A stretch of 64,000 nt of DNA from Minisyncoccota bacterium (GCA_022841985.1 JALHQL010000001.1:5529-69528); one strand, 5' to 3'. Shown: positions 3,672 to 17,616, counted from the first letter of the stretch. Notes: generated by a model from the letters alone, not told the origin. A program made the numbers and translations.

Positions 3672-3769
3672 GTTTATTTCTGGTGATAAAATTCAATAAT
3701 AATACCGTTCAGTATACCCTGCTAATCCTTTTGTCTAGACGTTCATCCACATCCTAAATCCTAATGTTA

Positions 3770-3778
3770 TGGTATAAT
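3770..3778 (+). promoter_or_regulatory. Extended -10 element (TGgTATAAT) driving rnpB
   Basis: tatggTATAATgc at 3768-3780; the predicted transcript start is ~7 nt downstream and coincides with the 5' strand of the RNase P RNA P1 helix. Confidence 0.4.
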
Positions 3779-3784
3779 GCACGC

Positions 3785-4148
3785 AGACCGAACTAGACGA
3801 TCGCCCCATGAGATAATCGCGGGGAGGAAAGTCCGAACATGCACTCTGCTTAACCGCAGAGGAGACAGGTAGCGGGTAACGCCCGTCGTCCGCGAGGATA
3901 GAGGTGCCTACAGAGACGCCCACAAGCGAAAGCGAGGGGCATCCTGCCACTCAGGTAGGATGAGTTCTCCGAGTAATCGGAGAGGTGCAACGAATAAATC
4001 CTTACCCGCATGCAAGGCCGTATCGTTGGTGCAAAACACCAACGGGGTGCCGCTCGAGCTTGCAAGCAATTGTGAGCCCAGATAAATGATCGTCTCGGTT
4101 TTTTTAAGAAAATCCAGACAGAATTCGGCTTATCGGTTCGGTCTATAC
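3785..4148 (+). ncRNA. rnpB: RNase P RNA (bacterial type A)
   Basis: Universally conserved P4 strand GGAGGAAAGTCCG at 3822-3834. The 3' region ACAGAATTCGGCTTATCGGTTCGG matches E. coli M1 RNA ACAGAACCCGGCTTATCGGTCAG. P1 pairing: AGACCGAAC (3786-3794) with GTTCGGTCT (4136-4144). P3 hairpin: gcccc...gcgggg. AGATAAATGA corresponds to M1 AGATGAATGA. Confidence 0.8.
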
Positions 4149-4154
4149 AATGCT

Positions 4155-4180
4155 AAAACCCACGCTCCTGCGTGGGTTTT
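4155..4180. terminator. Bidirectional rho-independent terminator between rnpB (+) and nrdJ (-)
   Basis: Perfect hairpin AAAACCCACGC-tcct-GCGTGGGTTTT with A/T runs on both sides. Confidence 0.6.
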
Positions 4181-4206
4181 AGCTTGAGGTGGAGCAACAG
4201 AGCGAC

Positions 4207-6621
4207 TTAGACTATTTCACAAGTCCCACCGGCACAAGCAAGCTCCTTTTTCATATCCGATTCATCCTGGCGTTCATATGCGAAGAGTTTCGAGTAATCC
4301 ACTTTTGGAAAGCGAGACATGCGTTCCTCGTATTCTTTTTCTGTAATTGTCTCATACGGCGCAAGACGATAGACATGATTTGATCGCGGAAGGAATGAAA
4401 GTCCGCCGATGATGTCCCAATTTTTCTGCACCCAGCTGACAACCCCAATCCACTCATCTTCGCCCACTGAGATGGTTGCCGAAGGATTGTGTTCAGTGAA
4501 GTTCAGTTTGACCGTCTTCCAGTATTCAAGTTGATCAAGGGCGGTCAGACCGTCTTTAAACTTCGCTTCTTTTGAGTGATCAGGCGCCTTGACCGGGAAC
4601 TCCAGTACAAAGGTATTGGCTTCTTCCATTGACTGCCCCACTTCCGGATAGTACGTCACACCTTGATCGCGCATCATTTTGAAAAGTGAGTCGGTCGCAC
4701 TGATGCGCACGCGACGGATATAGTAGGGTGCGTGGCGCGGATGAATACCCGATGCACAATTGAAAGTCTGTGAGACAGTACCCGAAGGCTTGACTGCAGT
4801 TACCGCCATTGATCGCTCGACACCAAAACGTTTTGCATACGCGACATTCGTCTTGACTGCTATATCGCGAACTTTACGCATCACCTCCGGCTGGCGCGCC
4901 ACAGGAGAATCCCATTGGCCTGTTATGGAAACGCCAAGGAGACGTTCCGCCTTATTATGCTCAGTCCAATCTTTTGAAATGTAGCCGAACTTTGTGAGCG
5001 TCGATTGATAGGTGCCGAGAATCGCCGCGAGACGTGCCTTCCGCAAGAGCGAGGCTTCCGTGTCGTTTGCACGCGCAATGACCTCGGAGAGATTACAGAA
5101 CTGCTTCGACTGCAAGATAATTTCGGCGCATGGATTGGTGCCGATAGATCCATGTACGACGCCATCTTCCCCGATAAAGCCGATTTTCTTGAAATACTCC
5201 GTTCGACGCTTTGGGAGAGTCGTCGCAAGAGAACCGCGATTGAAGATGCCTCGCTCGCCGCTTCCGCTTTTCATGAGCGCTACCCATTCGTCCATGAGCT
5301 CGGCATTGGTCGGCTGTATCTCATACACGGCGGAGTTATTGGAAACAGCGCGGTGTGGATCGGTCATATAGAATTGACCTTTCTTTGCATCACGCATCTC
5401 CACATCATCGAGGTCGGAGAGCGAGATCATCGCAGTACGACGCACTCCGCCAGCAACCACGCATTCGCCTATCTTACAAATGACATCGTGCACGTCGATC
5501 GCGCGCATGCGACGCCCCTGGCGCTTCAACACGCGCTCGCGGGCGAATGCGAGAAGACTCTGGAGCGGTTCAGGACCGCTTGCCTTCCCACCCATGGTCT
5601 TAAGGCGTGCTCCGGCCGGTCGTATCTGAGAATAATCAAATGTAATGTCTTTACCTGCATACCAGGTCGTAAGCCCGAGCGTGAGAGCATCGCACCAGCC
5701 CTCCTTTGAGTCCGCAATGACGTGCGTTGGTATCTTCTGCCCCATTTGTTTTTTGATTTGCGGAAGCTGCTCGACGTTTTGACTCTCTACCGCAAAGCCG
5801 ACACCGCATCCCTGCATTGAGAGATACATAATCTCGGCAAAGTCTTCGAGCTTCACCGGCGCAGTAAACGTACAATTATACGCACACGTATTACAGCGGC
5901 GCGCTGCCTCGCCCGAGAACTGCATGAGACGCATTGATGGCATCACTTCTTGCTTCAAGATGCCCATGCGTACTTCGGCGTATTCTTTTTCAGTCAGTTT
6001 GGTACCAAGATTCTCGCGCATGAAGCTTATGTAGCGATCTACCGTCTCAATCCATGTCTCGCGACGACCTTCAGAAGGAATCCATTTCGCGTAGGTGCGC
6101 AGGTAGACAAATTCACCGAGTGGATTTCCCTCGAAATATTTCTTGCTTTCTTCGGACAGCTTCCTCACATGTTCCGGTATCTCGATGTGCGTCGCCCGCA
6201 GTTGTGCCCGTTTGTCACGATAGAGAATGTACGCCTTAGCCGTCTTTACGTAATCGTTCAAGATGAGGTATTTTTCAATCGAATCTTGCATACCCTCGAC
6301 TGTTGGAAGGAAACTCTTATACTTCTTGGCAAATCGTCCGAGCTCGCCAGCCACCTGGTGCGCCACAAGATTTGCATCGTCCTGACTTCCTTCCTCTGCA
6401 GCGAGCATCGCCTTCCAAATAGCTGTGGCTATTTTATCGAAATCAAATGCAACAAGTCGCCCATCGCGTTTTTCTATTTGTGGAATCATTTCGCGATATC
6501 GCATCGTCTCCTTTGAGAACTCTTGTTCCGAGACTTCGGAAGGGAATCTAGATTCCGTCACTTTCGCAACAGAAGCAGCAAGACTTTTCGAATGGATGGA
6601 TGCTTTCGCGATTTTGGACAT
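4207..6621 (-). CDS. nrdJ: Adenosylcobalamin-dependent (class II) ribonucleotide reductase with N-terminal ATP-cone; the true start may be internal (MRYRE.../MIPQIEKRDG...)
   Basis: 804 aa. ATP-cone-like segment IPQIEKRDGRLVAFDFDKIATAIWKAM. RNR active-site motif TNPCAEI. C-terminal redox-active Cys pair CAGGTCEIV. The large size is typical of NrdJ. Confidence 0.75.
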   Translation of the reverse strand: MSKIAKASIHSKSLAASVAKVTESRFPSEVSEQEFSKETMRYREMIPQIEKRDGRLVAFDFDKIATAIWKAMLAAEEGSQDDANLVAHQVAGELGRFAKKYKSFLPTVEGMQDSIEKYLILNDYVKTAKAYILYRDKRAQLRATHIEIPEHVRKLSEESKKYFEGNPLGEFVYLRTYAKWIPSEGRRETWIETVDRYISFMRENLGTKLTEKEYAEVRMGILKQEVMPSMRLMQFSGEAARRCNTCAYNCTFTAPVKLEDFAEIMYLSMQGCGVGFAVESQNVEQLPQIKKQMGQKIPTHVIADSKEGWCDALTLGLTTWYAGKDITFDYSQIRPAGARLKTMGGKASGPEPLQSLLAFARERVLKRQGRRMRAIDVHDVICKIGECVVAGGVRRTAMISLSDLDDVEMRDAKKGQFYMTDPHRAVSNNSAVYEIQPTNAELMDEWVALMKSGSGERGIFNRGSLATTLPKRRTEYFKKIGFIGEDGVVHGSIGTNPCAEIILQSKQFCNLSEVIARANDTEASLLRKARLAAILGTYQSTLTKFGYISKDWTEHNKAERLLGVSITGQWDSPVARQPEVMRKVRDIAVKTNVAYAKRFGVERSMAVTAVKPSGTVSQTFNCASGIHPRHAPYYIRRVRISATDSLFKMMRDQGVTYYPEVGQSMEEANTFVLEFPVKAPDHSKEAKFKDGLTALDQLEYWKTVKLNFTEHNPSATISVGEDEWIGVVSWVQKNWDIIGGLSFLPRSNHVYRLAPYETITEKEYEERMSRFPKVDYSKLFAYERQDESDMKKELACAGGTCEIV

Positions 6622-6712
6622 ACGTGGACGATCAATAATTTATAAATATACTGCCGCGTGCTTCTTATCAACTAGTTTACTCCTGCTGCAAAAAAATACC
6701 CTGTGGACAGCG

Positions 6713-7189
6713 TTACTCTGAAACGATTGGAAAATTTTTCAACATAAGTTTTGTACTGGTCGTGATGTTGTGTGCACGCGCAAAACCAGCGACAGTTTCA
6801 AGGACATACCGTGCTTGGGCGTTCGGATAAAAGACATTTGGATAGCTTGAGGTCGCTACATTTTCGGCGATTGAAATAACCTGTCCTTTATCATCCAGCC
6901 AGAAAATATCTATAGGGACCAGCATATCCTTCATCCAGAAGCCATACATACCATCCTTTTGGAACACAAAAAACATTCCATAGTCTCCAGGGATCCTTGC
7001 TCGGCCGCTGAGCCCTCTCGCTTGCGCCTCGCTCGTACTTGCGACTTCAATTCTCAAGGACACGCCGCCAAATTCCCCTACGATAGATGGCTCCGCTGTT
7101 GGCGAATTTGTCCTATAGAAAAATAGTGCCGTAATTACCATCGCCACTATCAGAAATCCTACATAAAAATATCGAGACATACGCAACAA
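6713..7189 (-). CDS. DUF192 (COG1430) family protein with N-terminal membrane anchor
   Basis: 158 aa, N-terminal TM helix. Conserved DUF192 core: AQARGLSGR...GMFFVF...FWMKDMLVPIDIFWLDDKGQVI. Confidence 0.6.
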   Translation of the reverse strand: MLRMSRYFYVGFLIVAMVITALFFYRTNSPTAEPSIVGEFGGVSLRIEVASTSEAQARGLSGRARIPGDYGMFFVFQKDGMYGFWMKDMLVPIDIFWLDDKGQVISIAENVATSSYPNVFYPNAQARYVLETVAGFARAHNITTSTKLMLKNFPIVSE

Positions 7190-7194
7190 ATCAG

Positions 7195-7665
7195 CTAGAC
7201 TTTCAAAAGCATATCTACCATTTCTAGCTCCTTGTAAATGCCTGAAATGAGATCGAGCTCTTTAGCCTCTTCCAAACTTGCCCATTTGTATTCAACGGCG
7301 TCTTCGTCAAGCTTCACTTCCCCGGAAATATATGGCGCGTAATAGCTCAAGACCAGCACAGGAATTCCATCGGGGTGAAGGAAGGTAAGGTCAAGCAGAT
7401 AATTCACTTTCCCTATTTCAACACTTACTTCTTCTTGCACTTCTCGCCGAAGAGCTTTCTCGACAACTCCATACCAACCAGCATTACCATGAGTCTGCGG
7501 TGTATCGATATAATCGTTCGTACTTAACCCCCCGCCGGGCACTGTCCATTTACCCGGATGTACTTTTTTATGCTGGCTTCTTTTCGTCACCAAGTACTTC
7601 CCTTCGTCATTATAGATGATGCAGGTGGTCGCTATACGATGAAGTTCCTTATCTCGTATCTCCAT
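7195..7665 (-). CDS. NUDIX hydrolase
   Basis: 156 aa. Nudix box GGGLSTNDYIDTPQTHGNAGWYGVVEKALRREVQEEVSV (Gx5Ex7REUxEExGU pattern). Confidence 0.7.
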   Translation of the reverse strand: MEIRDKELHRIATTCIIYNDEGKYLVTKRSQHKKVHPGKWTVPGGGLSTNDYIDTPQTHGNAGWYGVVEKALRREVQEEVSVEIGKVNYLLDLTFLHPDGIPVLVLSYYAPYISGEVKLDEDAVEYKWASLEEAKELDLISGIYKELEMVDMLLKV

Positions 7666-7695
7666 GCATAAATGCTACCACGGAGCTCGGGGTAC

Positions 7696-9078
7696 CTAGA
7701 TAGTCTGATCGTGCGGATCGAAAATGGACGGGGACACTTCTTTTCCTTGCAGTAATTCTGAAATTCTTTTGCCACCAAATACCGATGGTAGAATACCGAC
7801 GCCGTTGCAGCCGAGGTTATACAAAAGCACCGGATTACATGGCTCGAAACCGACGCGACGAACGCCGTTTGGCGTATAGCCCATGAGTCCATGCCAACAA
7901 AACGCGTACTTGGTTTCCGGACCAGGGTGTTTACTGTAATTTGAACGCAGGAAATCGTCGATTATATCCCTCATATCCTCGGTGTACGCATGTGTGCGAG
8001 AATAATCCGCCCCATTCGGAAGCACTTTTTCCGGTCCACCCGCACAGACTAGACTATGGAGATTCTTCCCTTCGTGTTCGTGCGGACGACGAGTGAGGTA
8101 GAAATAGCTTTCGCCGGTCGGATCGCCATTGCGCTCATTCGTCTTGGGGAAATAACTCACGGCTGTGGGAGGATTGTCGAGCGGCTCGACGTAACCGGAC
8201 ATGTAACCGATGCGTCCAGCAATCGAGTGATGAAATGCCGTATCAATTTCTGGCCCCACTTCATTACTGATCGAAAAATGTTCGAATCCATTGGTGCACA
8301 GCACAATATTCCCCGCCACAACCGTATGCGCAAGGACCCCGAGCGACCCGTCGGCCCCCTTGAGCCGTACTGTTTTTACCGGACTGCCCTCATATAAAGA
8401 AAAACGGTCCTGGTATTTCGTCACTAAGTATCCGATGAGCTCTTCGGTAAAGAGCGCGCTATTCATGCATCCTTTCTGAAAAGCAAGGGAAGCGACGTAG
8501 CCCGTATTATTCGTCTCAAGCAGATTAAGCATGTCTTTGTGCGCGACTGTTCCATAGAGATGCGCATATGCTTTTGGAATATTCTTGCGCTCCTCCCACT
8601 CTTCGGCGACAATCATTGCCTCCGTCTGTAATCCTCCTTCCTCTCGGTAATGATTATCTTTCAGATGCCGAAGGACCTGATCGAAGCTCGAAAGCCCGGT
8701 ATATCCGGTAAATCGATAGAGCGGCGTCCGTAGATCCGCTTCTTCCATGATTTGGTCAATCAGCGTCCAAGCAGACTCGATCGAACGTTGACCATCAATG
8801 GCAAGTTCGAGACCGAATTCTTCCACGAGCTCAGAAAGCGGCCGCTCGAAGTAACTTGTAATCTGTCCTGCATTGTGCCCGGTCGCTCCATGGGCAATTT
8901 TATCGGCCTCAAGCAGAATAACGGTCTTGTTCGTATCGCGCAGAGTGAAAAAAGCGGTAACAATGCCGGCAATGCCACCACCGACGATGGCCACATCCGC
9001 GGTCGCATTGGCATTAAGCGGAACAACCGATCTACTGCGCTTGAGCTGATGTATCCAGGGTGAATTATTCGGTATCAT
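7696..9078 (-). CDS. FAD-dependent oxidoreductase (DAO / glycine-oxidase-like family)
   Basis: 460 aa. N-terminal dinucleotide-binding motif DVAIVGGGIAGIVTAF plus EADKIAHGATGHNAG, typical of the DAO superfamily. Confidence 0.65.
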   Translation of the reverse strand: MIPNNSPWIHQLKRSRSVVPLNANATADVAIVGGGIAGIVTAFFTLRDTNKTVILLEADKIAHGATGHNAGQITSYFERPLSELVEEFGLELAIDGQRSIESAWTLIDQIMEEADLRTPLYRFTGYTGLSSFDQVLRHLKDNHYREEGGLQTEAMIVAEEWEERKNIPKAYAHLYGTVAHKDMLNLLETNNTGYVASLAFQKGCMNSALFTEELIGYLVTKYQDRFSLYEGSPVKTVRLKGADGSLGVLAHTVVAGNIVLCTNGFEHFSISNEVGPEIDTAFHHSIAGRIGYMSGYVEPLDNPPTAVSYFPKTNERNGDPTGESYFYLTRRPHEHEGKNLHSLVCAGGPEKVLPNGADYSRTHAYTEDMRDIIDDFLRSNYSKHPGPETKYAFCWHGLMGYTPNGVRRVGFEPCNPVLLYNLGCNGVGILPSVFGGKRISELLQGKEVSPSIFDPHDQTI

Positions 9079-9095
9079 ATGGCATTACTAAAAGT

Positions 9096-10691
9096 TTACT
9101 CTACTTTGAAACTGAACATCATCCCCGACTCAAGATGCTCGGCGATATGGCAGTGTGCCATCCAGATGCCCGGGTTTGAAGTGTCGAGAATGATGTCTAC
9201 CGTTTCTCCAGCTTTCACCAAAACTGTGTCTTTCCACGCAAGGTTTGTTTGCGGTACTCCATCGCGAGCCACAACAAGGAACCGCTGACCGTGGAAATGC
9301 ATCGGATGTTGCATCGGGTGCATAGAATTCGGATCATTAAAAATCCTGATCTTGACTGGCTCTCCGCGCTTGAACGTCCAGTCGATGTCCATGTTTTCTT
9401 TTCCGGTCGCCTGATCTCTTACTTTCCATTTGACTGCATCGGCATCGGACATTTGGTTCATCATTTCGTTTTCATCTTCCCACTCAATACCGCCTTCCGA
9501 ACTCATCATAGAGCCGCCCATCCGGGTGCCGTCCGGCATCATATGGCCTCCCATCATACTCATCATGTTGCCGCCCATGTCGATGGAGAGTTTGATTTGT
9601 TTGTTTGGTGCTTTGTCGAAATACTGCCGGAATGGAACGATACTTGCCACTGTTTCTCCATGAGTGCGGAGCCGATTGAACTCTGACGTATAAGAGACCT
9701 CAACAGAATCTGTGTTTACACCGATCGTACCAAGTGTATAGGTTTTATTCGGTGTCTTATTTTGAATCGCAAACGTGCCACTTGTATCAAACATAACTTC
9801 AACGACAGCGCGCTCAGAAGGGCCGAGCGTTACCGCATTCACCCATTGATCCTTTTCATACGCACCGCCATCTGCTCCGACTAGCTTCATCTTTGCTCTA
9901 GCGATGGAAAAGTTAAACGGTCGAGTATTTGCTGAATTGGTGACATAGAAGCGAATAACCTCTCCTTTTTTTACAGAAAGGGAATACTCTGTCTCGCCAT
10001 TTATGAGCATAACGTTCCCAAACCTGCCCATGAGAGTATGACTGGCTTCCTGTTTGTTCAAAGTAATCCTTCCGTCTTCGATTAACATATCGTCTAAGAA
10101 TAGAGCGGCCTCGCGATTCACGGGCGACCAGTAATCAGCACTTTTCGGAACCACAAGATAGTTTCCATAGAGTCCGAGTTCCTGCTGATAATCCTCCCGA
10201 ACGTGCGGATGATACCAATACATACCGGCATCCGGAAACTTGAGTTTGTAAGAAAATACTTCGCCCGGCTTCATTGCTTCCTGCGTACTCTGCGATCCGT
10301 CAAACGCATTGTCCATTCTGATGCCGTGCGAGTGGAGAAGTGTATTCATGTCAATGCCGTTTTTGAAATTGATTGTAACTTCCGCTCCTTGGGCGATTTT
10401 AATAAGCGGTCCCGGAATTGAACCATTATAGGCAAGCATCCGGTATTCCGTGCCGTTAATATTCTTTTTTACATAGCTTGCGGTGAGATCATAGGTATCG
10501 CCATCCTTAAGCTCCACTGTTTGCGTTACCGAAGCGGGAGAGAGACCTGGGGTATCTGTGCTTACATACTCGCTTCGCACTATAGAGAACGAATTATCCT
10601 GTAAAAAGAACGCCGTCCCAATTATAATAACAACCGACACGATTCCACCGAATAGTTTATTTTTCATATAGTTTAACGAATTTGTTTCCAT
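9096..10691 (-). CDS. Multicopper oxidase (CueO/laccase-like) with Met-rich insert and N-terminal TM/signal anchor
   Basis: 531 aa. Copper-centre motifs HPMHFHG and HCHIAEHLESGMM (HCHxxxHxxxxM type 1/3 Cu ligands). Met-rich segment GGNMMSMMGGHMMPDGTRMGGSMMS as in copper-resistance MCOs. N-terminal hydrophobic helix. Confidence 0.8.
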   Translation of the reverse strand: METNSLNYMKNKLFGGIVSVVIIIGTAFFLQDNSFSIVRSEYVSTDTPGLSPASVTQTVELKDGDTYDLTASYVKKNINGTEYRMLAYNGSIPGPLIKIAQGAEVTINFKNGIDMNTLLHSHGIRMDNAFDGSQSTQEAMKPGEVFSYKLKFPDAGMYWYHPHVREDYQQELGLYGNYLVVPKSADYWSPVNREAALFLDDMLIEDGRITLNKQEASHTLMGRFGNVMLINGETEYSLSVKKGEVIRFYVTNSANTRPFNFSIARAKMKLVGADGGAYEKDQWVNAVTLGPSERAVVEVMFDTSGTFAIQNKTPNKTYTLGTIGVNTDSVEVSYTSEFNRLRTHGETVASIVPFRQYFDKAPNKQIKLSIDMGGNMMSMMGGHMMPDGTRMGGSMMSSEGGIEWEDENEMMNQMSDADAVKWKVRDQATGKENMDIDWTFKRGEPVKIRIFNDPNSMHPMQHPMHFHGQRFLVVARDGVPQTNLAWKDTVLVKAGETVDIILDTSNPGIWMAHCHIAEHLESGMMFSFKVE

Positions 10692-11581
10692 GAATCTCCC
10701 CCGTCACTGCTCTTGTAGAGCTTATTCTCATGTGTAAGAGCATAGACTATGTTTGGATTACTTCGATTAAAAACAATGTGGAGTACTGCCCCCACTCCAA
10801 AATCACTACTTACCTTTCCCCACGTCTTACCTGCATCGATGCTTTTCCCAAGACCCCCTAACTTTTCACTAAACGTAAGAAGAATTTTTGCGTCTTGAGG
10901 ATTACTAACGATGACTGATACGGCTCCATCTTCCAATTCCGGCGAAAGAGATGTCCATGTTGCACCTTTATCCTTACTTACCATCACTCCCTGGCCTTGC
11001 GTGGTCGCGGCATAAACCACGTTTTCATCTTGTGTGTCGGCCGCAAGATACACCGGTAGTAAATTACGATTCACTATCTCCCACGTTTTACCCTGATTGA
11101 TGCTTCGCTGAAGATTGCCCTGATACCAGCCATACATAAGATTGGGATTCACCGGACTGACAGACATTGCATGGAAATCAACCGGGCCGTTCAAGCCACT
11201 GGAAACCTTCTGCCATGTAACTCCGCCATCTTCAGACTTTTGAAATCCGATATTACCTCCGATACTTGGATGGCCACTTGAAAAAACAATGTTTGCTTCC
11301 GTGGGATGAGTAGAGAACCCCATGTAATCGTCTTTACTTTTACCAACCCGATATAGATCTTTTTCATTCAAAAGTACCAACAGACCATGATGTGTTGCGA
11401 TATAGAGTTTATTGGGATCTTCTACCGCAACTGCCAAACCATGCCCGTGCGTAATAACTTCTTCAGGGTACAAGTTATTTAATGAAGAATCTTTTGTTGT
11501 ATCACCGCCACGATAAAACATCGTGATTCCACCGACCATAAGTACGACTGCTATAATTCCAATGATTATTTTAATTTTCAT
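10673..11581 (-). CDS. BNR/Asp-box repeat beta-propeller protein (Ycf48/sialidase-like fold), membrane-anchored
   Basis: 302 aa, N-terminal TM helix. Repeated Asp-box motifs S-x-D-x-G-x-T-W: SEDGGVTWQKV, NQGKTWEIV, KDKGATWTSL, DAGKTWGKV, SDGGDSWKQI. Confidence 0.55.
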   Translation of the reverse strand: MKIKIIIGIIAVVLMVGGITMFYRGGDTTKDSSLNNLYPEEVITHGHGLAVAVEDPNKLYIATHHGLLVLLNEKDLYRVGKSKDDYMGFSTHPTEANIVFSSGHPSIGGNIGFQKSEDGGVTWQKVSSGLNGPVDFHAMSVSPVNPNLMYGWYQGNLQRSINQGKTWEIVNRNLLPVYLAADTQDENVVYAATTQGQGVMVSKDKGATWTSLSPELEDGAVSVIVSNPQDAKILLTFSEKLGGLGKSIDAGKTWGKVSSDFGVGAVLHIVFNRSNPNIVYALTHENKLYKSSDGGDSWKQIR

Positions 11582-11597
11582 CTATTTATTTTATTGA

Positions 11598-13703
11598 TTA
11601 CAATTCGCGCTTTCGTAAAAGAATTGCGTTACCAGCGACGATGATCGTACTCACCGACATAAACACGGCCGCTACTGCTGGATCAAGAATGATTCCTTTG
11701 AACGCCAGCGCACCAGCGGCAAGCGGCAGGGCTACCACGTTGTAGCCAGTCGCCCAAAACAGGTTCTGGATCATTTTGGTGTAGGTCATCTGTGATAACC
11801 GTACGATCTTCACAATATCCCGAGGGTCATTCCGCATAAGAATAATACCGGCTGACTCAATAGCGACATTTGTACCAGCACCTATTGCGATTCCGAGATC
11901 GGCCTGTGTTAGAGCTGGAGCATCGTTGATACCATCGCCGACCATTGCGACCTTCAGGCCACGATCCTGCAATGCTTTCACCTTTTCTGATTTCTGATGA
12001 GGAAGCACCCGAGCAAAATATTCATCAATGCCGAGCTCGGAGGCGACCCATTTTGCCACATCTTCGGAGTCGCCAGTAATCATTGCGGACTGTATACCCA
12101 TTTCTTTAAGCGACTTGATCGCTTCTCGTGACTCTTCCCGAATGATATCGGCGAGTGCCATCGCTCCGAGGAGTTTTTTATCTTTTATTGTAAAGACAAC
12201 GGTCTGTCCCTTCTTACCGGCATCCTGAACATGATTGGAAATTTCATTTGGAATGCTAAGTCCAAGACTCTCAAGAAGAGTCGGCCCACCAACCATGACT
12301 TCCTGCTCGCCAATCATTGCCTTTACACCACTGCCTTTGATTGCTTCAAACTTCTTAGGATCTTTGAGCGAAAGTCCCTGTTCTTTGGCTTTAGCCACCA
12401 CAGCTCGGGCAATTGGATGCTCCGACAGAGCATCGAGCGAAGCGGCTAATGCTATAACCTCGTCTTTGGTATACCCGCTGGTGCTCCATACTTCTACCAC
12501 CCCAAATTCTCCCTTTGTGAGTGTTCCTGTCTTATCAAACAGCACGGTATCCACTGTCCGAGCGGCTTCAAGGGCAAGACGCTGTTTTACGAGAAAGCCA
12601 TTCTGTGCCGCTTTGGTTGTGGAAATTGCTGCGACCAACGGAACGGCGAGACCGAGCGCATGCGGACAAGCAATCACAAGTACAGCCACGAGCCGAGCTA
12701 CCGCAAAACCGACATCAGCTCCAGCCAAAAGCCAGGCAATGAGTGTAATAAGGCCTCCACCGACTGCAACTACCGTGAGATACAGTGCTGCCCTATCGGA
12801 GAGAATCTGCAGTTTTGACTTGGAAGCCTGTGCTTCGGCGACTAAACGCATAACACCGGCAAGAAAGGTCTTCTCGCCGATTTGTGTGACTCTGATCTTT
12901 AGTGCTCCATCGCCATTAATTGTACCGGCAATAACAGCGTCGCCTTGCTTTTTAGACACTGGGTTAGATTCTCCGGTAATCATAGACTCGTTTACATCGG
13001 AATCGCCCTCAATGACGGAACCGTCGGTCGGAATCTTTGTCCCTGGCTTGACCAATACGATGTCATTTTCCCGAAGCTCGGAAAGAGAAATAGTCGTCGT
13101 TACTCCATTGTGGATTACTTCTGCGGTATCGGGAAGTAGTTTTGACAGTTCCTTAAGTGCTCCTTGCGCTCCGGAAACCGCACGCATTTCGAGCCAATGG
13201 CCGAGAAGCATGATCGTAATAAGTGTCGTGAGTTCCCAAAACAGAGCTTCGACTCCAGCAAAGACCGCATACACACTCCAGAGATAAGCGGCCGAAATAG
13301 CAATCGCGATAAGGGTCATCATCCCTGGTAGTCGTCCCTTGATCTCGCGCCACGATCCAATTAAGAACACCCAGCCTCCGTAGAAAAAGACGACTGATCC
13401 TATGACCAAGGAGAGATAGTCTGACCCGGGGAAAGAGGGAGGAGACCATTTAAAAATAGTTTCTACGACATCCGCGTAGAACACGACCGGAATAGTTAAC
13501 AGAAGGCTTATCCAAAACTTTCTAAAAAATATCTGCGTCGAGTGGCCTGCATGCGTATCGTGCCCCTCGTGTGCCGTTGTCGATTTCTTGTTTCTCGTGG
13601 GTACCAATTGCATACCGCACTCCGAACACATTCCCGGCGTATCCCGCACCACTTCCGGATGCATCGGACAGGTATACCTTGTTTCAGTTTGTTGTTGTGT
13701 CAT
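11598..13703 (-). CDS. copB: Heavy-metal (copper) translocating P1B-type ATPase, CPH subtype (CopB-like), with N-terminal Cys/His metal-binding domain
   Basis: 701 aa. TM6 motif CPH (VIACPHALGLAVP). DKTGTLT phosphorylation site. GDGINDAP hinge. N-terminal YTCPMHPEV...PGMCSECGM metal-binding module and His-rich stretch HEGHDTHAGHS. Confidence 0.85.
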   Translation of the reverse strand: MTQQQTETRYTCPMHPEVVRDTPGMCSECGMQLVPTRNKKSTTAHEGHDTHAGHSTQIFFRKFWISLLLTIPVVFYADVVETIFKWSPPSFPGSDYLSLVIGSVVFFYGGWVFLIGSWREIKGRLPGMMTLIAIAISAAYLWSVYAVFAGVEALFWELTTLITIMLLGHWLEMRAVSGAQGALKELSKLLPDTAEVIHNGVTTTISLSELRENDIVLVKPGTKIPTDGSVIEGDSDVNESMITGESNPVSKKQGDAVIAGTINGDGALKIRVTQIGEKTFLAGVMRLVAEAQASKSKLQILSDRAALYLTVVAVGGGLITLIAWLLAGADVGFAVARLVAVLVIACPHALGLAVPLVAAISTTKAAQNGFLVKQRLALEAARTVDTVLFDKTGTLTKGEFGVVEVWSTSGYTKDEVIALAASLDALSEHPIARAVVAKAKEQGLSLKDPKKFEAIKGSGVKAMIGEQEVMVGGPTLLESLGLSIPNEISNHVQDAGKKGQTVVFTIKDKKLLGAMALADIIREESREAIKSLKEMGIQSAMITGDSEDVAKWVASELGIDEYFARVLPHQKSEKVKALQDRGLKVAMVGDGINDAPALTQADLGIAIGAGTNVAIESAGIILMRNDPRDIVKIVRLSQMTYTKMIQNLFWATGYNVVALPLAAGALAFKGIILDPAVAAVFMSVSTIIVAGNAILLRKREL

Positions 13704-13707
13704 ATGA

Positions 13708-13980
13708 TTATTTCTTTTTCTGCGCCAGTTTATAGACTTTTAGAATTTCCGCGACCGCTTTTTTGCGCTTCCCTGATTTCATCTGTTCGACGACATGGGT
13801 CGTGAGATGGTTCTCGAGCACCAAGTCTTCCACTCCCGACAATGCCTCCTTAATTGCGCTTGATTGAATAATAATATCCACGCAGTACCGTTCGGTATCG
13901 ACCATTTTTATAAGTCCGTCGACTTGTCCTCTGATGAGACTGAGGCGCCGGAGTGATTTTTTCTTTATATCGGCTTTCAT
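13708..13980 (-). CDS. csoR: CsoR/RcnR-family (DUF156) metal-sensing transcriptional repressor. The ORF-track start at 14082 is probably spurious; the start at ATG 13980 is preferred.
   Basis: The 91-aa form MKADIKKKSLRRLSLIRGQVDGLIKMVDTERYCVDIIIQSSAIKEALSGVEDLVLENHLTTHVV... matches the CsoR/RcnR family (LxRIEGQVRGIxxMxEEDRYCxDIL). The operator palindrome lies immediately upstream of this start. The stop is 5 nt upstream of the copB start. Confidence 0.75.
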   Translation of the reverse strand: MKADIKKKSLRRLSLIRGQVDGLIKMVDTERYCVDIIIQSSAIKEALSGVEDLVLENHLTTHVVEQMKSGKRKKAVAEILKVYKLAQKKK

Positions 13981-13992
13981 GTTATCCCCATA

Positions 13993-14009
13993 ATACCCCT
14001 CTGGGGTAT
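13993..14009. promoter_or_regulatory. CsoR-type operator: perfect inverted repeat ATACCCC-TCT-GGGGTAT overlapping the csoR promoter/5' end
   Basis: ATACCCCTCTGGGGTAT lies 13 nt upstream of the csoR ATG. It resembles known CsoR operators (GC-rich TACCC-N-GGGTA pseudo-palindromes in B. subtilis copZA and M. tuberculosis cso). Confidence 0.55.
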
Positions 14010-14085
14010 TTGTGTACAGTCTCGCCTTTATGTACCCTATAGATGGAGGTTGGAGATTACTAAAAACACTAAACGACTTCACTAT

Positions 14086-14215
14086 GATGAACTATGGCTA
14101 TGGGAGCATGATGGGTAGCGCGGGCAGTTTTGGTTTTCTTGTCGGAATCATTATTCTCGTCGACCTTGTCCTCGTGGGCATCTGGCTCTGGCAACAGATT
14201 TCTAAAAATAAATAA
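14086..14215 (+). CDS. Possible small single-TM protein (43 aa from the internal Met; 67 aa from ATG 14012), divergent from csoR
   Basis: MMNYGYGSMMGSAGSFGFLVGIIILVDLVLVGIWLWQQISKNK: a Gly/Met-rich N-terminus plus one hydrophobic helix. No convincing SD, so real coding status is uncertain. Confidence 0.2.
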
Positions 14216-14239: not shown

Positions 14240-16918
14240 TCAAGACAACCTTCTTCGATAGAAGAACTTGCGGATTTCTTCGACCAAGATAATTGATCCG
14301 GCGACGGGAATAATAATCAACCATTCCGAAAGTGAGAGCGGTACCGTGTGCAAAATGTTTTGCATAAACGGATTATAGACTGCAAATAAATGAAGAAGAA
14401 TGACCACCATGGTCACACCAACGAGATACGTATTGGAGAATGGATTCATCTGAAACAAAGACTTGCTCTCGGAACGGCAATTCCACGCATTGAACCACTG
14501 GAAGGCGGCCATGGTCGTAAGAGCGATAGTCCAAGCTTTGGCAAGATCAGTTTCAAAATATTGACTGAAAAGATAGAGTGTTCCAAGTCCCATGACCGGA
14601 GCCAAAAGCAGCATCCGTCGCGCCATAAAGCCGTCGACAATCCATTTCTTCTGTTTATCGAATGTACCTTGCAGCAGACCTTGCTCCTTTGGTTCCATAG
14701 CAAGCGCAGCTGTCAGAAAGCCGCCAGTGACAAAATTAAGCCAAATAATCTGCGATGGCAAAAGTGGTACTGGCCAACGCGCTACGAGCGCGCCCATAAT
14801 ATTAATAACTTCTCCTATGCTGGTAGAGAAAAGAAACGTCAGAACTTTTTTTACCGTCTTATAAATGCTTCTGCCCTCTTCAGCCGCCGAGACGATGCTG
14901 GCAAAATTATCGTCCAGAAGCACGATATCAGACGCCTCCTTTGCCACTTCTGTTCCTATGTTCCCCATAGCAACGCCAAGATCGGCAGCGACAAGAGAAG
15001 GAGCATCATTAACGCCATCTCCGGTCATCGCTATGATCTCACCGCGTTTCCGATAGGCCTGAATGATGCGGAGTTTGTGATCTGGCGTCACGCGCGCAAA
15101 GACAGTCGTGTGGGCGAGCTTCACAGAAAGTTCCTCGTCGTACATCTTGTCTATGTCTTCCCCGGTAAGAATTCCGTCGCCTTCGCGCCAGATATCCGCC
15201 TCTTTTGCTATTGCCTGCGCCGTGAGCCGATGGTCGCCCGTAATCATCACCGCGCGCATGCCTGCCGAGCGCACTCTCTGCATCGCTTCTTTTACTTCGC
15301 CGCGGAGGGCGTCTTGCATGCCGAAAAAACCGACGAACGCGAGCGGCGGTAATGCCCCCTCGATTACTGATTCCTCAGTATTCGGATTAATGGCATACGC
15401 AACGACCCGAAAACCGTTTCGCGCGAATGTGTGAAATACCGTCGTAAGCTCTTTTCTTTTCTCTTCAGTAAGTGTGTCAACTCCTTCTTTGTGCCAGAGT
15501 TTCTGGCAAAGTCTGAGAACTTCTTCAGGGGCACCGACGATGGTAAGAAAATTCTTCCCCTCTACCATACGAATAACGGCATGATATTTTCTCCGATAGT
15601 CGAACAGGGTTTCAAAAAGTTTTGGTGTTTCCTTCTCTAGAACGTCATGACGGAATCCAATCTTTTCAGAGAACACCAGCATCGCCGCTTCAGTGGGATC
15701 TCCCGCGACCTTCCACATGCCAGTTTCTTCAAAAAAAGAGAGTCGTGCATTAGCACCAAACGCCGCGATCCTTCCGCTTAATAGCAGTTCGGAATGGTTT
15801 AAAGGATCGATAACCACGCCGTCAAGAACCGCTTCGCCCTTCGGATCGTAACCATTTCCGGTAATCTGAAAATGTTTTCCATCTGCATAGATGCCCCGAA
15901 CCAGCATTTCATTCTTTGTCAGAGTGCCAGTCTTGTCTACCGCGATGACTTTGGTCTGTCCCAACGCTTCTACCGCTTGCATCCGCTTTACCAATACATT
16001 GTGCTTTGACATTCTCCATACGCCAGTTGCGAGCACAAGAGTCATGACGATCGGAAGTCCCTCAGGGATAATGGAAACTGAGAGCGCCACAGCTGTGGTA
16101 AACATTTCTTTAAGAGATTTTCCGGAAGAAACACCGAGCGCAATCAATGCAACATTGATGAGAGCCACTGCGATAATGATGAGGCGCGAAAGATACCGAA
16201 TATTCATTTTTAAAGGAATCTCGGTGTCAATCGTCGAAATCTCCTGTGCTATCTTCCCGATCTCTGTCGCAAAGCCAGTCGCTATGACGACCGCAATGCC
16301 ATTTCCACTTAACACATTGGTACCTTTGAATAGTATATTTTTCTGTTCCGTAATCGGCAGAGTATCAACTGGCACGACTGCTTCGGTTTTAGTGACAGGT
16401 ACCGATTCCCCGGTAAGACTAGCTTCATCTATTTTAAGAGTATTGGCGGAGATAATCCGCGCATCAGCCGGCACTTTTTCTCCTTCTTGAAGGAGAATAA
16501 TATCCCCCGTCACTATCTCGGTATCAGGAATGATGCGCTCCTTTCCATCTCGCACTACCGTGGCCGAAGTTTCAGAAAATTTCTTTAAGGCGAGAAGCGC
16601 ATTTTGTGCTTTGCCTTCCTGAAAAGTCCCGACAACGGCATTAAAAAATAGGACAACGAAAATGATTGCCGCATCAACTGCTTCTCCCATCCAGAAAACA
16701 ATTGCCGAAGCAGCAAGAAGAATATAGATAAGAGGACTTTGGAATTGCCGTAAAAAAATAAGGAAGAGCCCGTCTACCTTTCCTTCGGGAAGTTTGTTGA
16801 CCCCGTATTTTTGAAAACGCTCGTTCGCCTCCTCTTGTGTCAATCCGCGCTCGTTCGAATGCAGCGTCTCAAGAACATCGAGGATTGTTTTCGTATGCCA
16901 GGGAAATGGTTCCATCAC
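14240..16918 (-). CDS. P2-type cation-transporting P-type ATPase (Ca2+/Mg2+-ATPase-like)
   Basis: 892 aa. N-terminal cation-ATPase-N segment (LTQEEANERFQKYGVNKL). PEGLP motif in M4. DKTGTLT. GDGVNDAPSL. Ten predicted TM helices. Confidence 0.8.
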   Translation of the reverse strand: MMEPFPWHTKTILDVLETLHSNERGLTQEEANERFQKYGVNKLPEGKVDGLFLIFLRQFQSPLIYILLAASAIVFWMGEAVDAAIIFVVLFFNAVVGTFQEGKAQNALLALKKFSETSATVVRDGKERIIPDTEIVTGDIILLQEGEKVPADARIISANTLKIDEASLTGESVPVTKTEAVVPVDTLPITEQKNILFKGTNVLSGNGIAVVIATGFATEIGKIAQEISTIDTEIPLKMNIRYLSRLIIIAVALINVALIALGVSSGKSLKEMFTTAVALSVSIIPEGLPIVMTLVLATGVWRMSKHNVLVKRMQAVEALGQTKVIAVDKTGTLTKNEMLVRGIYADGKHFQITGNGYDPKGEAVLDGVVIDPLNHSELLLSGRIAAFGANARLSFFEETGMWKVAGDPTEAAMLVFSEKIGFRHDVLEKETPKLFETLFDYRRKYHAVIRMVEGKNFLTIVGAPEEVLRLCQKLWHKEGVDTLTEEKRKELTTVFHTFARNGFRVVAYAINPNTEESVIEGALPPLAFVGFFGMQDALRGEVKEAMQRVRSAGMRAVMITGDHRLTAQAIAKEADIWREGDGILTGEDIDKMYDEELSVKLAHTTVFARVTPDHKLRIIQAYRKRGEIIAMTGDGVNDAPSLVAADLGVAMGNIGTEVAKEASDIVLLDDNFASIVSAAEEGRSIYKTVKKVLTFLFSTSIGEVINIMGALVARWPVPLLPSQIIWLNFVTGGFLTAALAMEPKEQGLLQGTFDKQKKWIVDGFMARRMLLLAPVMGLGTLYLFSQYFETDLAKAWTIALTTMAAFQWFNAWNCRSESKSLFQMNPFSNTYLVGVTMVVILLHLFAVYNPFMQNILHTVPLSLSEWLIIIPVAGSIILVEEIRKFFYRRRLS

Positions 16919-17004: not shown

Positions 17005-17385
17005 CTATCCCTCTACTTCCACGCTAAAACCCCCTTTGGCCATGCGCTTCATATCAAATGGCATAGAAAAATCCTTTGCATCTTTGTATTTTTCGCTCAT
17101 CTCATCCATCACTTTTTTATTGACTTCGTCGCGATGTTGCTTGGATTCATACACAATAAAAGAAAACCACACGGTCTCGTCCGCATTTGTTTTTGTAAGC
17201 TCAGTAAACGCAAGCGATTTCATGCCATCCATTTCTTCAGACTCAAGATCGTCACCCTTGCATTCGTAATACTCAAGAGCACCGTGTTTCATCCACGCAT
17301 CGCGGCCTTCGATGGCCATTTTTGTATATTCCTGCACTTTGTCTTTCGGAACTACGAATACAAACCCGTCTATATATTTTGCCAT
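17005..17385 (-). CDS. DUF1428 family protein
   Basis: 126 aa. MAKYIDGFVFVVPKDKVQEYTKMA...GALEYYEC...ETVWFSFIVYESKQHRDEVNKKVM matches the DUF1428 pattern. Confidence 0.6.
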   Translation of the reverse strand: MAKYIDGFVFVVPKDKVQEYTKMAIEGRDAWMKHGALEYYECKGDDLESEEMDGMKSLAFTELTKTNADETVWFSFIVYESKQHRDEVNKKVMDEMSEKYKDAKDFSMPFDMKRMAKGGFSVEVEG

Positions 17386-17462: not shown

Positions 17463-17529
17463 TGGCGATGAAGGGGAGATTCGAACTTTCGAGACCCTTT
17501 CGAGCCTACCACCTTTCTCCCACGCAAAG
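17463..17529 (-). pseudogene. Degenerate tRNA 3' half (variable-arm/T-arm/acceptor-3'/CCA) directly abutting tRNA-Ser; no matching 5' acceptor strand
   Basis: Minus-sense ...GGTGGTAGGCTCGAAAGGGTCTCGAAAGTTCGAATCTCCCCTTCATCGCCA. It is similar to the 3' portion of the neighbouring tRNA-Ser (CTCGAGAGTTCGAATCTCTCC vs CTCGAAAGTTCGAATCTCCCC), but the T-stem no longer pairs and no 5' acceptor partner (G[AG]TG[AG][AG]G) exists. Confidence 0.4.
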
Positions 17530-17616
17530 CGGAGGCGGAGAGATTCGAACTCTCGAGGCGGTTTCCCACCTGCCGCCTTTCCAAGGCGGTGCACTCGACC
17601 ACTATGCGACGCCTCC
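17530..17616 (-). tRNA. tRNA-Ser (anticodon GGA), class II with long variable arm; CCA not encoded
   Basis: Cloverleaf: acceptor GGAGGCG/CGCCTCC (7 bp); D-stem GCA/TGC; anticodon stem CCGCC/GGCGG with loop TTGGAAA; variable arm GGTGG-GAAA-CCGCC; T-arm GAGAG-TTCGAAT-CTCTC; discriminator G. Flanked by an 11-bp inverted repeat CCCACGCAAAG / CTTTGCGTGGG. Confidence 0.8.

Follow-up and report, generated by a model that had tools for sequence, protein, structure and literature searches.

A copper-detoxification cassette with a predicted exported propeller in a mosaic gene row 3′ of a tRNA-Ser gene of a Parcubacteria genome

Here we describe a row of seven genes, found in a window of 64,000 nucleotides from a Parcubacteria (CPR) genome, that we read as an evolutionary mosaic. 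According to this reading, to which we would give a probability of about 80%, a slot 3′ of a tRNA-Ser(GGA) gene holds a CsoR-controlled unit, csoR-copB-BNR-MCO (repressor, pump, BNR propeller and multicopper oxidase), followed by a variable gene for a FAD-dependent oxidoreductase and by a backbone block, NUDIX-DUF192-RNR, with its own promoter. The first four genes are a horizontally acquired copper-detoxification cassette, a copper operon of ordinary kind set in mosaic surroundings, and the last three are unrelated genes of the lineage, adjacent to it by chance. Coordinates are those of the window, and features lie on the minus strand unless otherwise indicated.

ORF calling recovered all seven genes in a single row (6713-13980), as the preliminary description had claimed, and confirmed the gaps it had given: from csoR through copB, BNR, MCO, FAD and NUDIX to DUF192 they measure 4, 16, -19, 17, 30 and 5 nt. 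Profile searches (Pfam, NCBIfam) likewise upheld the seven domain assignments, among them a BNR/Sortilin propeller domain, the DAO domain of the FAD protein, and the NUDIX and DUF192 domains at the end of the row. The overlap of 19 nt between BNR and MCO is probably an artefact of the ORF caller, since the oxidases of relatives begin with MKNKL..., equivalent to ATG 10667; with the start moved to this position the gap becomes +5, and those of the row range from 4 to 30 nt. All six junctions were inspected and none contains a terminator-like hairpin. Downstream of the row, a gene for a class II (B12-dependent) ribonucleotide reductase (RNR, 4207-6621) starts after only 91 nt on the same strand.

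The first gene encodes a CsoR-family repressor of 90 residues (13708-13980; PF02583, E = 4e-23, 82 bits against a cut-off of 22.8). Its longest ORF begins at GTG 14082, but the start was placed at ATG 13980 because the Pfam match covers that ORF only from residue 40 onwards and a promoter and operator lie just before the ATG. This promoter (13990-14018), conserved in L147, one of two loci of the closest relative (L147/L148), consists of a -35 box TGTACA (14018-14013) and a -10 box TATTAT (13995-13990) that ends 9 nt ahead of the ATG. Overlapping the -10 box is the predicted CsoR operator (13993-14009, with no strand assigned), the perfect palindrome ATACCCCAGAGGGGTAT, whose arms ATACCCC and GGGGTAT flank AGA and which occurs once in the whole window. 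In about 15 related loci the pattern TACCC-N5/6-GGGTA stands 10-40 nt ahead of csoR, and each exact match to it in the 138 loci searched has a csoR homologue directly downstream. The repressor itself is 95% identical to that of L147.

When aligned with solved CsoR structures (PDB 2HH7 and 3AAI), the protein keeps the Cys and His of the M. tuberculosis set Cys36/His61/Cys65 and carries His as the third ligand (NHLTTH), as does the Thermus CsoR 3AAI, which is likewise Cys-His-His; CsoR relatives in loci that hold a BNR gene have Cys-His-Cys. The Ni/Co sensor RcnR, too, has His as the third ligand. It could thus be proposed that nickel or cobalt, and not copper, is what the cassette senses and exports; the HLTTH of the window protein presumably resembles the HLTEH of RcnR, and NCBIfam profiles score the protein almost alike as RicR (49.6 bits) and as RcnR (49.3 bits). 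Nevertheless, the N-terminal His3 is missing, the closest matches of solved structure are copper CsoRs, 3AAI included, the operator belongs to the CsoR type and the Cys-His-Cys relatives have it too, and the genes behind it encode a Met-rich multicopper oxidase and a pump that bears the copper signature of P1B-3 ATPases (CPH/MSxST), so that nickel or cobalt specificity seems extremely improbable.

The pump gene, copB (11598-13703), would encode a CopB-type (P1B-3) copper-exporting ATPase, with an HMBD (PF19335) and a His-rich N-terminus that includes the stretch HEGHDTHAGH. Motifs CPH at residue 346, DKTGT at 390, GYN at 653 and MSVST at 682 complete the P1B-3 signature set (CPH in TM4, YN in TM5, MSxST in TM6, DKTGT, His-rich N-terminus), and TIGR01511 is matched with 589 bits (cut-off 397). 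The oxidase gene (9096-10691, with the likely true start at ATG 10667) encodes a three-domain multicopper oxidase with all four copper motifs (HxHG, WxHxH, HxxHxH and HCHxxxHxxxxM) and a Met-rich insert that contains 13 Met within residues 365-414; it is probably a cuprous oxidase. The domains and motifs thus agree with the earlier view that repressor, CPH-type pump and Met-rich oxidase form a copper-detoxification unit.

Several known systems offer points of comparison. As in the CsoR operons of M. tuberculosis (cso), B. subtilis (csoR-copZA) and T. thermophilus (copZ-csoR-copA), a CsoR-family repressor accompanies a copper-exporting P1B ATPase, and a GC-rich palindromic operator with AT-rich flanks lies over the promoter. 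The window unit differs in that the CopZ chaperone is missing, that the pump is of the CPH type (CopB, P1B-3) with an HMBD and not a CPC-type CopA with ferredoxin-like domains, and that the unit also holds a multicopper oxidase and an exported propeller; moreover, it is found in a CPR bacterium, and compared with the closest relative the genes behind csoR have been exchanged. The pairing of a Cu(I) pump with a Met-rich three-domain oxidase bearing all four motifs is also that of E. coli CueO/CopA and of Aquifex McoA. In E. coli, however, pump and oxidase belong to the MerR-type CueR regulon, whereas here they share one CsoR operon, and the window oxidase differs from CueO by a hydrophobic N-terminal anchor in which a reading of the sequence recognises no Tat motif, and by a score of 153 bits for the CueO equivalog, below the cut-off of 525.

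Between pump and oxidase lies the gene for the BNR propeller (10673-11581), preceded by a TAAAAT box. From profiles, topology and structure comparison, its product is predicted to be an exported, membrane-anchored member of the F510_1955 family, with some 265 residues forming one six-bladed propeller that has five Asp-boxes. It carries eight invariant residues (His5/Met/Asp2: H45, H47, H64, D85, M87, H104, D135 and H137), and the family-wide invariant motifs HxHG, ATHxG, DxMGF, SGHP and DFH sit outside the Asp-box blades. The Asp-box repeats and the beta-propeller fold are shared with NF045728 and the related GH74 and Ycf48 propellers; the single six-bladed propeller, with its invariant motifs outside the Asp-box blades, sets it apart from GH74 proteins.

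The database label for the protein is "F510_1955 family glycosylhydrolase" (NCBIfam NF045728), and its score of 186.4 bits exceeds the cut-off of 175. Together with the five Asp-boxes, and with GH74 xyloglucanases as best matches both in sequence and in Foldseek (15-19% identity), this would speak for a glycoside hydrolase or a carbohydrate-binding surface protein that is a mere passenger in metal islands. GH74 enzymes are built of two tandem seven-bladed propellers. The architecture of a GH74-type hydrolase, with such tandem propellers and a catalytic Asp pair in the cleft, was considered for the window protein and set aside in view of its single six-bladed propeller. Furthermore, the similarity to GH74 is confined to the Asp-box blades, while the invariant His, Met and Asp residues stand in blades that have no Asp-boxes. 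The family name, in turn, derives from an uncharacterised Anoxybacillus ORF whose function is given as unknown by its authors.

The genomic context of the homologues points the same way. Among 19 metagenomic loci with a BNR protein at least 50% identical and flanks of at least 4 kb, 13 have csoR, a P1B ATPase or a multicopper oxidase within 5 kb of BNR, and none has FAD, NUDIX or DUF192. All of the sampled plasmids with a BNR homologue (8/8, from five phyla) carry copper or heavy-metal genes, and in plasmids and metagenomic loci alike carbohydrate genes are essentially missing around it, whereas for more distant BNR proteins copper genes were found in 0 of 29. The context is consistently one of copper or heavy-metal resistance, the NF045728 label is backed by no evidence of a glycosidase, and the carbohydrate reading is improbable. 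The order copB-BNR-MCO is found again in two metagenomic loci (L068 and L089), and in two others (L059 and L094) BNR-MCO is followed by a DoxX-like gene. In many loci BNR stands upstream of the csoR operator and not behind it, so control of BNR by CsoR would not be general. No publication describing a link between the propeller and metal genes was found in the literature. The association reappears in the metal-resistance islands of several bacterial phyla, and we consider it a worthwhile lead.

Envelope genes (TlpA, DsbA, CcdA and ICMT-like) also recur beside BNR homologues. They fit the idea of a metal-dependent enzyme, for example a hydrolase or lyase of the lactonase, PAL or phytase kind with His-bound Zn or Ca, acting on an envelope substrate under metal stress, and the invariant His and Asp residues would suit a catalytic metal site. 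Yet identity to enzymes of these types is only 9-14%, and the cassette encodes the propeller between pump and oxidase. Besides, an invariant Met together with several His is more typical of extracytoplasmic copper sites, and we regard an enzymatic role as rather unlikely. Conservation, topology and gene context argue instead for metal binding, and the role of the propeller would most likely be the binding or buffering of copper outside the cytoplasm, or its transfer from pump to oxidase. The BNR gene is the one non-canonical member that belongs to the copper operon. Beyond the window, we put forward only tentatively that the glycosylhydrolase name is mistaken, and that it may cover a widespread, unrecognised class of exported six-bladed propellers handling copper or heavy metals, with a His5/Met/Asp2 site on one face that would catch Cu(I) from P1B pumps and either buffer it or hand it over to multicopper oxidases, and that would have spread horizontally with metal-resistance islands over CPR, Bacteroidota, Pseudomonadota, Actinomycetota, Bacillota and Cyanobacteriota.

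The working of the cassette can be sketched from these parts. Without copper, CsoR would sit on the palindrome over the -10 box and block transcription; binding of Cu(I) at the Cys-His-His site would release it. The CPH-type P1B-3 pump would then move cytoplasmic Cu(I) out, and outside the membrane the anchored Met-rich oxidase would turn it into the less toxic Cu(II), with the exported His/Met-rich propeller most likely binding copper there, as a buffer or as a relay between the two. Transcripts started at the copper promoter could physically run on into FAD and later genes, but this would be incidental.

Whether the whole row forms one extended operon against copper and oxidative damage, in which the FAD, NUDIX and DUF192 proteins would serve cofactor redox or deal with oxidised nucleotides, must be considered in the light of the other genomes. 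Copper stress leads to oxidative damage, the seven genes share one strand with gaps of at most 30 nt and terminator-free junctions, and in L147/L148 the copper genes adjoin NUDIX-DUF192 too. Moreover, no terminator lies in the 17-nt gap between MCO and FAD, and therefore FAD and the later genes may be co-transcribed and induced by copper; since copper genes lie in the same slot of three related genomes (that of the window, L147/L148 and, with its MCO, L149), a functional link to the backbone specific to this lineage may also exist. Tight spacing, however, says little about co-transcription here, since the genome is poor in SD sequences and appears prone to leaderless mRNAs, and among 17 closely spaced genes 5 are preceded, just ahead of the ATG, by a -10-like box of their own.

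The comparative data already largely refute the extended operon. The FAD gene (7696-9078) is a variable-slot gene with no conserved neighbour across the FAD loci; copB, BNR and MCO are absent within 10 kb of it in all 53, and in the closest relative with copper genes a clean deletion has reduced the gene to a scar. In another relative, L016, a terminator-like GC hairpin with T-tract lies about 60 nt ahead of FAD. The genes for the NUDIX hydrolase (7195-7665; PF00293, E = 2e-15, with the MutT equivalog at 29.7 bits, far under its cut-off of 97.9) and the DUF192 protein (6713-7189), which follows NUDIX in relatives, belong to a conserved Parcubacteria backbone whose third member is RNR, and this block exists without copper genes in L150 and L016. 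Relatives of the cassette, for their part, are followed by other genes. The seven-gene set and order are thus not conserved across genomes, the copper cassette and the FAD and NUDIX-DUF192 parts occurring independently.

The NUDIX gene also seems to have its own signal. Six nucleotides ahead of its ATG lies a candidate extended -10 box, TGGTAGCAT (7672-7680), conserved in L147, L149, L150 and L016, so that TGnTAnCAT-N6-ATG precedes NUDIX in five genomes whatever the upstream neighbour, which in L150 is directly the tRNA-Ser. The background frequency of TGnTAnnnT at such a distance from an ATG is 0.5%, and boxes of this type stand before 43% of gene starts, compared with 5.7% of all ATGs. We infer a putative internal promoter giving a leaderless mRNA. 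Together with a cassette composition unlike that of the last three genes, these data make the extended operon very improbable. Of the proposal that the non-canonical genes take part in metal handling, the part concerning BNR stands, as this gene does travel with copper genes; for FAD, NUDIX and DUF192 it fell, given their lack of co-occurrence with copper genes elsewhere and the conserved promoter-like box before NUDIX.

The mosaic reading also accounts for the surroundings of the row. The metal genes occupy a hypervariable slot between two conserved blocks, LemA-HtpX-tRNA and NUDIX-DUF192-RNR. At its upstream edge stands the tRNA-Ser(GGA) gene (17529-17616), found after HtpX also in L016, L149 and L150, and next to it a 45-nt partial copy of the tRNA 3′ half (17473-17517, 78% identity, repeat family D1), which may be the remnant of an integration site. 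Further cargo of the slot comprises a DUF1428 gene (17005-17385; PF07237), missing from the slot in L016, L149 and L150, and a P2-type (PMR1/SERCA-like) cation ATPase gene assigned by profiles (14240-16918), present at 91% identity in L147/L148. This closest relative has csoR, ATPase and MCO without BNR. L149 shows the order MCO-TruB-FAD-NUDIX-DUF192-RNR, with TruB separating FAD from MCO; the slot of L016 holds methylases, TruB and FAD, the copper genes being missing and NUDIX-DUF192-RNR kept; and L150, from which FAD and the copper genes are missing, reads HtpX-tRNA-Ser-NUDIX-DUF192-RNR.

Nucleotide identity to L148 is 88% over 16762-13651, ranges from none to 64% across copB-BNR-MCO, and returns to 84% from 7682. 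The segment between these recombination breakpoints (9095-13651) is a tetranucleotide outlier, its distance being reached by 0 of 200 background chunks; by the same composition test FAD-NUDIX-DUF192 and RNR are no outliers. As a compositional outlier in a variable slot, the repressor, pump and oxidase genes indeed make up the clearest accessory module here, as had been suggested. At the protein level, the closest relative's ATPase shares only 40% identity with the pump, and the oxidase of L147 shares 61% with that of the window. The breakpoints indicate that recombination would have brought in copB-BNR-MCO downstream of a csoR promoter older than this cargo, and the exchange appears to have proceeded by homologous recombination in conserved flanks, at the csoR end and the MCO end. 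In this the slot resembles tRNA-linked islands: its cargo, which varies between close relatives, sits directly behind the 3′ end of a tRNA gene and beside a fragment that repeats part of the 3′ half of that tRNA. It differs from such islands by this apparent homologous recombination and by the lack of an integrase or clear att repeats flanking the cargo.

The end of the row had earlier been set at 14215, which takes in an ORF of the plus strand (14084-14215) that is divergent from csoR and falls outside the minus-strand row. This ORF encodes a small Met/Gly-rich membrane peptide of 43 residues, conserved in L147/L148, where it is called as a gene of 41 residues, and related peptides are present in three further copper loci (L083, L092 and L071).

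The preliminary description had placed seven minus-strand ORFs here and had named the domains of each; the ORF listing confirmed the positions, and profile searches (Pfam/NCBIfam) upheld all seven domain calls. The row itself stands, although its range end of 14215 also took in a small plus-strand ORF divergent from csoR. It opens with csoR (90 aa counted from the ATG at 13980, minus strand; PF02583), followed by a P1B pump with CPH in TM4, GYN, MSVST and DKTGT motifs and an N-terminal HMBD, then a short His-rich stretch, a set that reads as the CopB/P1B-3 signature. Next come a BNR/Sortilin-type propeller protein (BNR), above the NCBIfam cut-off for "F510_1955 family glycosylhydrolase", and a three-domain multicopper oxidase (MCO) with four of the four copper motifs and 13 Met within 50 residues; the last three genes encode a DAO-family flavoprotein (FAD) and members of the NUDIX and DUF192 families. 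The minus strand continues 91 nt beyond DUF192 with a gene for a class II ribonucleotide reductase (RNR). The intergenic gaps along the row are 4, 16, -19, 17, 30 and 5 nt, of which the negative one, between BNR and MCO, is probably an artefact: because the oxidases of relatives begin MKNKL..., the MCO start would lie at 10667 and the gap would be +5. No terminator-like hairpins were found in the row junctions.

Shine-Dalgarno motifs are rare in the window (7/53 gene starts), and at 23 of the 53 starts (43%) the ATG has a TAnnnT box 5-9 nt ahead of it, compared with 5.7% for ATG triplets as a whole (p = 3e-15). The 23 include 5 of the 17 genes spaced at most 35 nt from their upstream neighbour. 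This suggests that leaderless mRNAs are widespread in the Parcubacteria lineage of the window. In an SD-poor genome with such boxes even at closely spaced genes, short gaps are therefore no proof of co-transcription. The generic sigma-70/terminator scan gave counts not above those of shuffled sequence, left the junctions empty and was useful for the csoR promoter only, and an Rfam search of the cluster returned no riboswitch or other RNA element.

Read from sequence comparison, csoR-copB-BNR-MCO makes up the functional unit: a copper-detoxification operon of a known kind, to which an undescribed propeller is added as an accessory. FAD is predicted to be a slot gene unrelated to this unit, and NUDIX-DUF192-RNR a conserved backbone with its own predicted promoter. 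Of the earlier interpretation, the copper unit of csoR, ATPase and MCO and its link with BNR are retained, and the membership of FAD, NUDIX and DUF192 is not. The "extended copper operon", proposed as an undescribed architecture, is not new: what mimics a long operon is a mobile cassette in a tRNA-linked hot-spot, which can pass for one notably in an SD-poor, apparently leaderless-prone genome.

The neighbourhood of FAD weighs against the longer operon. Scanning the FAD protein against species-representative genomes gave 53 loci, nearly all in Patescibacteria, at 34-81% identity, and in all 53, P1B ATPases, BNR propellers and MCOs are absent within 10 kb. Neighbour clustering across 51 CPR loci found no conserved partner, and we therefore propose no function for FAD, which is an orphan CPR enzyme. 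This 460-aa DAO-family flavoprotein (7696-9078; L001-L053 in the comparison set) is widespread in CPR, with 53 species representatives, and does not reach the curated cut-off of any NCBIfam model that it matches.

The gene orders around NUDIX homologues in related genomes delimit the slot. Locus L150, from Kaiserbacteria, reads LemA-GGDEF-HtpX-tRNA-Ser-NUDIX-DUF192-RNR; L149 reads LemA-HtpX-tRNA-Ser-two small ORFs-MCO-TruB-FAD-NUDIX-DUF192-RNR; and the closest relatives of the window, L147 and L148, read P2-ATPase-small peptide-csoR-P1B ATPase-MCO-NUDIX-DUF192-RNR. From these orders the backbone is LemA-HtpX-tRNA-Ser(GGA)-[slot]-NUDIX-DUF192-RNR, NUDIX homologues being well conserved in Parcubacteria, and the slot cargo of the window is everything from DUF1428 (17385) to FAD (7696). 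The closest FAD locus, L016, is the only one of the 53 keeping FAD-NUDIX-DUF192-RNR, and it does so without copper genes. Its flanks match those of the window, with HtpX-tRNA-Ser at one end and, at the other, the genes from FAD to RNR and further; the stretch from tRNA-Ser to FAD holds, among others, DNA methylases, an HATPase protein and TruB. Homology between L016 and the window starts about 22 nt before the FAD ATG, and in L016 a GC-rich hairpin with a T-tract stands ahead of that point. L147 holds a scar, CTTAGTAATGCCACATGATGCC, where FAD would stand, and FAD was thus deleted there.

Several other features were observed around this slot. A 45-nt copy (17473-17517; 78% identity) of the 3' half of the adjoining tRNA-Ser(GGA) lies at its edge and may be an integration-site remnant. 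When att-like direct repeats were sought on the flanks of the slot, this partial copy was all that turned up, no integrase was found in the slot region, and a classical integrase-borne island is accordingly not supported. A PMR1/SERCA-like P2-type cation ATPase (14240-16918), directly upstream of the copper locus, also belongs to the slot cargo. In L016, a LAGLIDADG endonuclease gene (1376-2038) stands between HtpX and tRNA-Ser, and two DNA methylases and an HATPase_c_3 protein (2201-6881) take the place of the metal genes of the window.

The cargo behind csoR differs sharply between the window and its closest relatives. Compared with L147/L148, identity is 91% for the P2-ATPase, 95% for csoR, 87% for NUDIX, 81% for DUF192 and 96% for RNR, against 40% for the P1B ATPase and 61% for MCO, and BNR is absent from both. 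Nucleotide identity to L148 stands at 88% over 16762-13651, ranges from undetectable to 64% over 13650-9095, and returns to 84% from 7682 on. By tetranucleotide composition the segment 9096-13980 stands out from the rest of the window, at a distance that 0 of 200 equal-sized chunks reach; in the same comparison FAD-NUDIX-DUF192 and RNR have ordinary composition. The copB-BNR-MCO order was found again on the independent contigs L068 and L089, and in loci L059 and L094 the gene after BNR-MCO is DoxX-like rather than FAD. The copper unit is, by these sequence criteria, one acquired horizontally and exchanged by recombination in the tRNA-linked hot-spot, and the locus would illustrate how CPR bacteria gain and swap copper-resistance cargo behind a fixed regulator. 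As for the pumps themselves, the ATPase of L147 has CPD in TM4, against CPH in the window; the P1B ATPases of L147 (3095-5248) and of another locus, L092 (7243-9318), combine CPD in TM4 with MSxSS in TM6 and Met/His-rich N-termini, and in L147/L148 the CPD/MSxSS pump stands in place of the CPH/MSxST pump of the window.

The backbone genes have candidate transcription signals of their own. NUDIX is preceded by TGGTAGCAT-N6-ATG, an extended form (TGnTAnnnT) whose background rate is 0.5%, and this extended box is kept in L147, L149, L016 and L150; in the latter a promoter is required before NUDIX, because the upstream neighbour is a tRNA. We infer a candidate internal promoter at about 7672-7680 that would yield a leaderless NUDIX mRNA. 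Read-through from the copper promoter into FAD is possible, since MCO and FAD are only 17 nt apart. No strong FAD promoter emerged: the roughly 22 nt ahead of the ATG are partly conserved with L016 and L147 but contain no convincing -10. Between the DUF192 stop and RNR lies a conserved element of about 38 nt (CGCTGTCCACAGGG...GCAGGAGTAAAC; about 6675-6712), also found in L147, L149 and L016 and without a match in Rfam; it may serve in the regulation of RNR.

At the other end, the copper operon begins with what is predicted to be a textbook CsoR switch. A -10 box, TATTAT, lies 9 nt before the csoR ATG, with TGTACA 17 nt upstream of it, and the box is overlapped by the perfect palindrome ATACCCCAGAGGGGTAT, which occurs once in the 64 kb window. 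Its core, TACCC-N5-GGGTA, is matched in 6 of 138 loci, each time directly upstream of a csoR homologue, and a relaxed pattern in about 15 loci, 10-40 nt before csoR. In the window CsoR the last Cys of the usual Cys-His-Cys triad is replaced by His, as in Thermus thermophilus CsoR (PDB 3AAI), which has Cys-His-His at the aligned positions; the CsoR of L092 is likewise Cys-His-His, and the other csoR genes of BNR-linked loci are Cys-His-Cys. Divergent from csoR, 14084-14215 (+) encodes a Met/Gly-rich peptide of 43 aa (MMNYGYGSMMGS...) with a single membrane pass, which L147/L148 also have in conserved form. Peptides resembling it occur in further copper loci: in L083 one immediately precedes a CPC ATPase, in L092 one stands between csoR and the ATPase, and L071 has one too. 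The window peptide may be a small copper-related membrane protein.

Conservation of the propeller across phyla is unusually high: a homologue from a Chitinophagales genome is 75% identical and one from an Ilumatobacteraceae genome 70%. In the former, BNR ends the operon CsoR-MauE-BNR; a serine recombinase and TrwB are its neighbours, and an MCO is found 5 kb away. Exact-sequence look-ups with the BNR of the window and with its 100% identical hit, P0001, matched no recorded contig. That it travels with copper genes was borne out in two settings. Among metagenomic loci with at least 4 kb of flank and a BNR at least 50% identical, at least one of csoR, a P1B ATPase and an MCO lies within 5 kb in 13 of 19, against 0 of 29 for more distant BNR proteins. 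At E <= 1e-30 the family numbers roughly 1,570 representatives. The family also occurs on 63 plasmids of cultured bacteria, and all eight of the contexts sampled (two each from Sinorhizobium and Bacillus, one each from Azospirillum, Arthrobacter, Streptomyces and Chroococcidiopsis) hold copper or heavy-metal genes: CusA/CzcA, P1B ATPases, MCOs, CopZ, four-helix-bundle copper proteins, DUF305, SCO, MerR/MerA or outer-membrane CopB, often together with TlpA, DsbA and CcdA. The F510_1955 name traces to an Anoxybacillus ORF whose authors call its function unknown, and our literature search found no paper tying the family to metals; the BNR protein in Price et al. is from another family, one with a link to an RND exporter.

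The AlphaFold model of BNR (pLDDT 88, pTM 0.83) has an N-terminal membrane helix, a linker and six four-stranded blades, with five Asp-boxes in the C-D loops of blades 2-6, and every homologue has a membrane anchor, lipobox or signal peptide. A GH74-type hydrolase requires two seven-bladed domains, and this function is ruled out because BNR is a single six-bladed propeller; Foldseek gave only weak matches, to single GH74 domains and Ycf48. The glycosylhydrolase label of the family is probably wrong. Residues H45, H47, H64, D85, M87, S102-G-H104-P and D135-F-H137 are invariant down to 28% identity and lie in blades one to three, at inner-strand starts or in B-C loops, and by propeller topology they would therefore cluster on one face. 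We conclude that BNR is an exported propeller with a predicted metal site, whose role would most likely be copper binding or hand-over between pump and oxidase, the main alternative being that it is a metal-dependent enzyme. If BNR binds copper, it would be a new part of extracytoplasmic copper handling and the annotation of the whole family would be corrected; it occurs in islands for copper and heavy metals in bacteria that are cultured and amenable to genetics (Bacillus, Arthrobacter, Sinorhizobium, Streptomyces and cyanobacteria). In the 610-aa protein P0133, a YncE-like propeller is fused to an F510_1955-type propeller with 47% identity to the BNR of the window.
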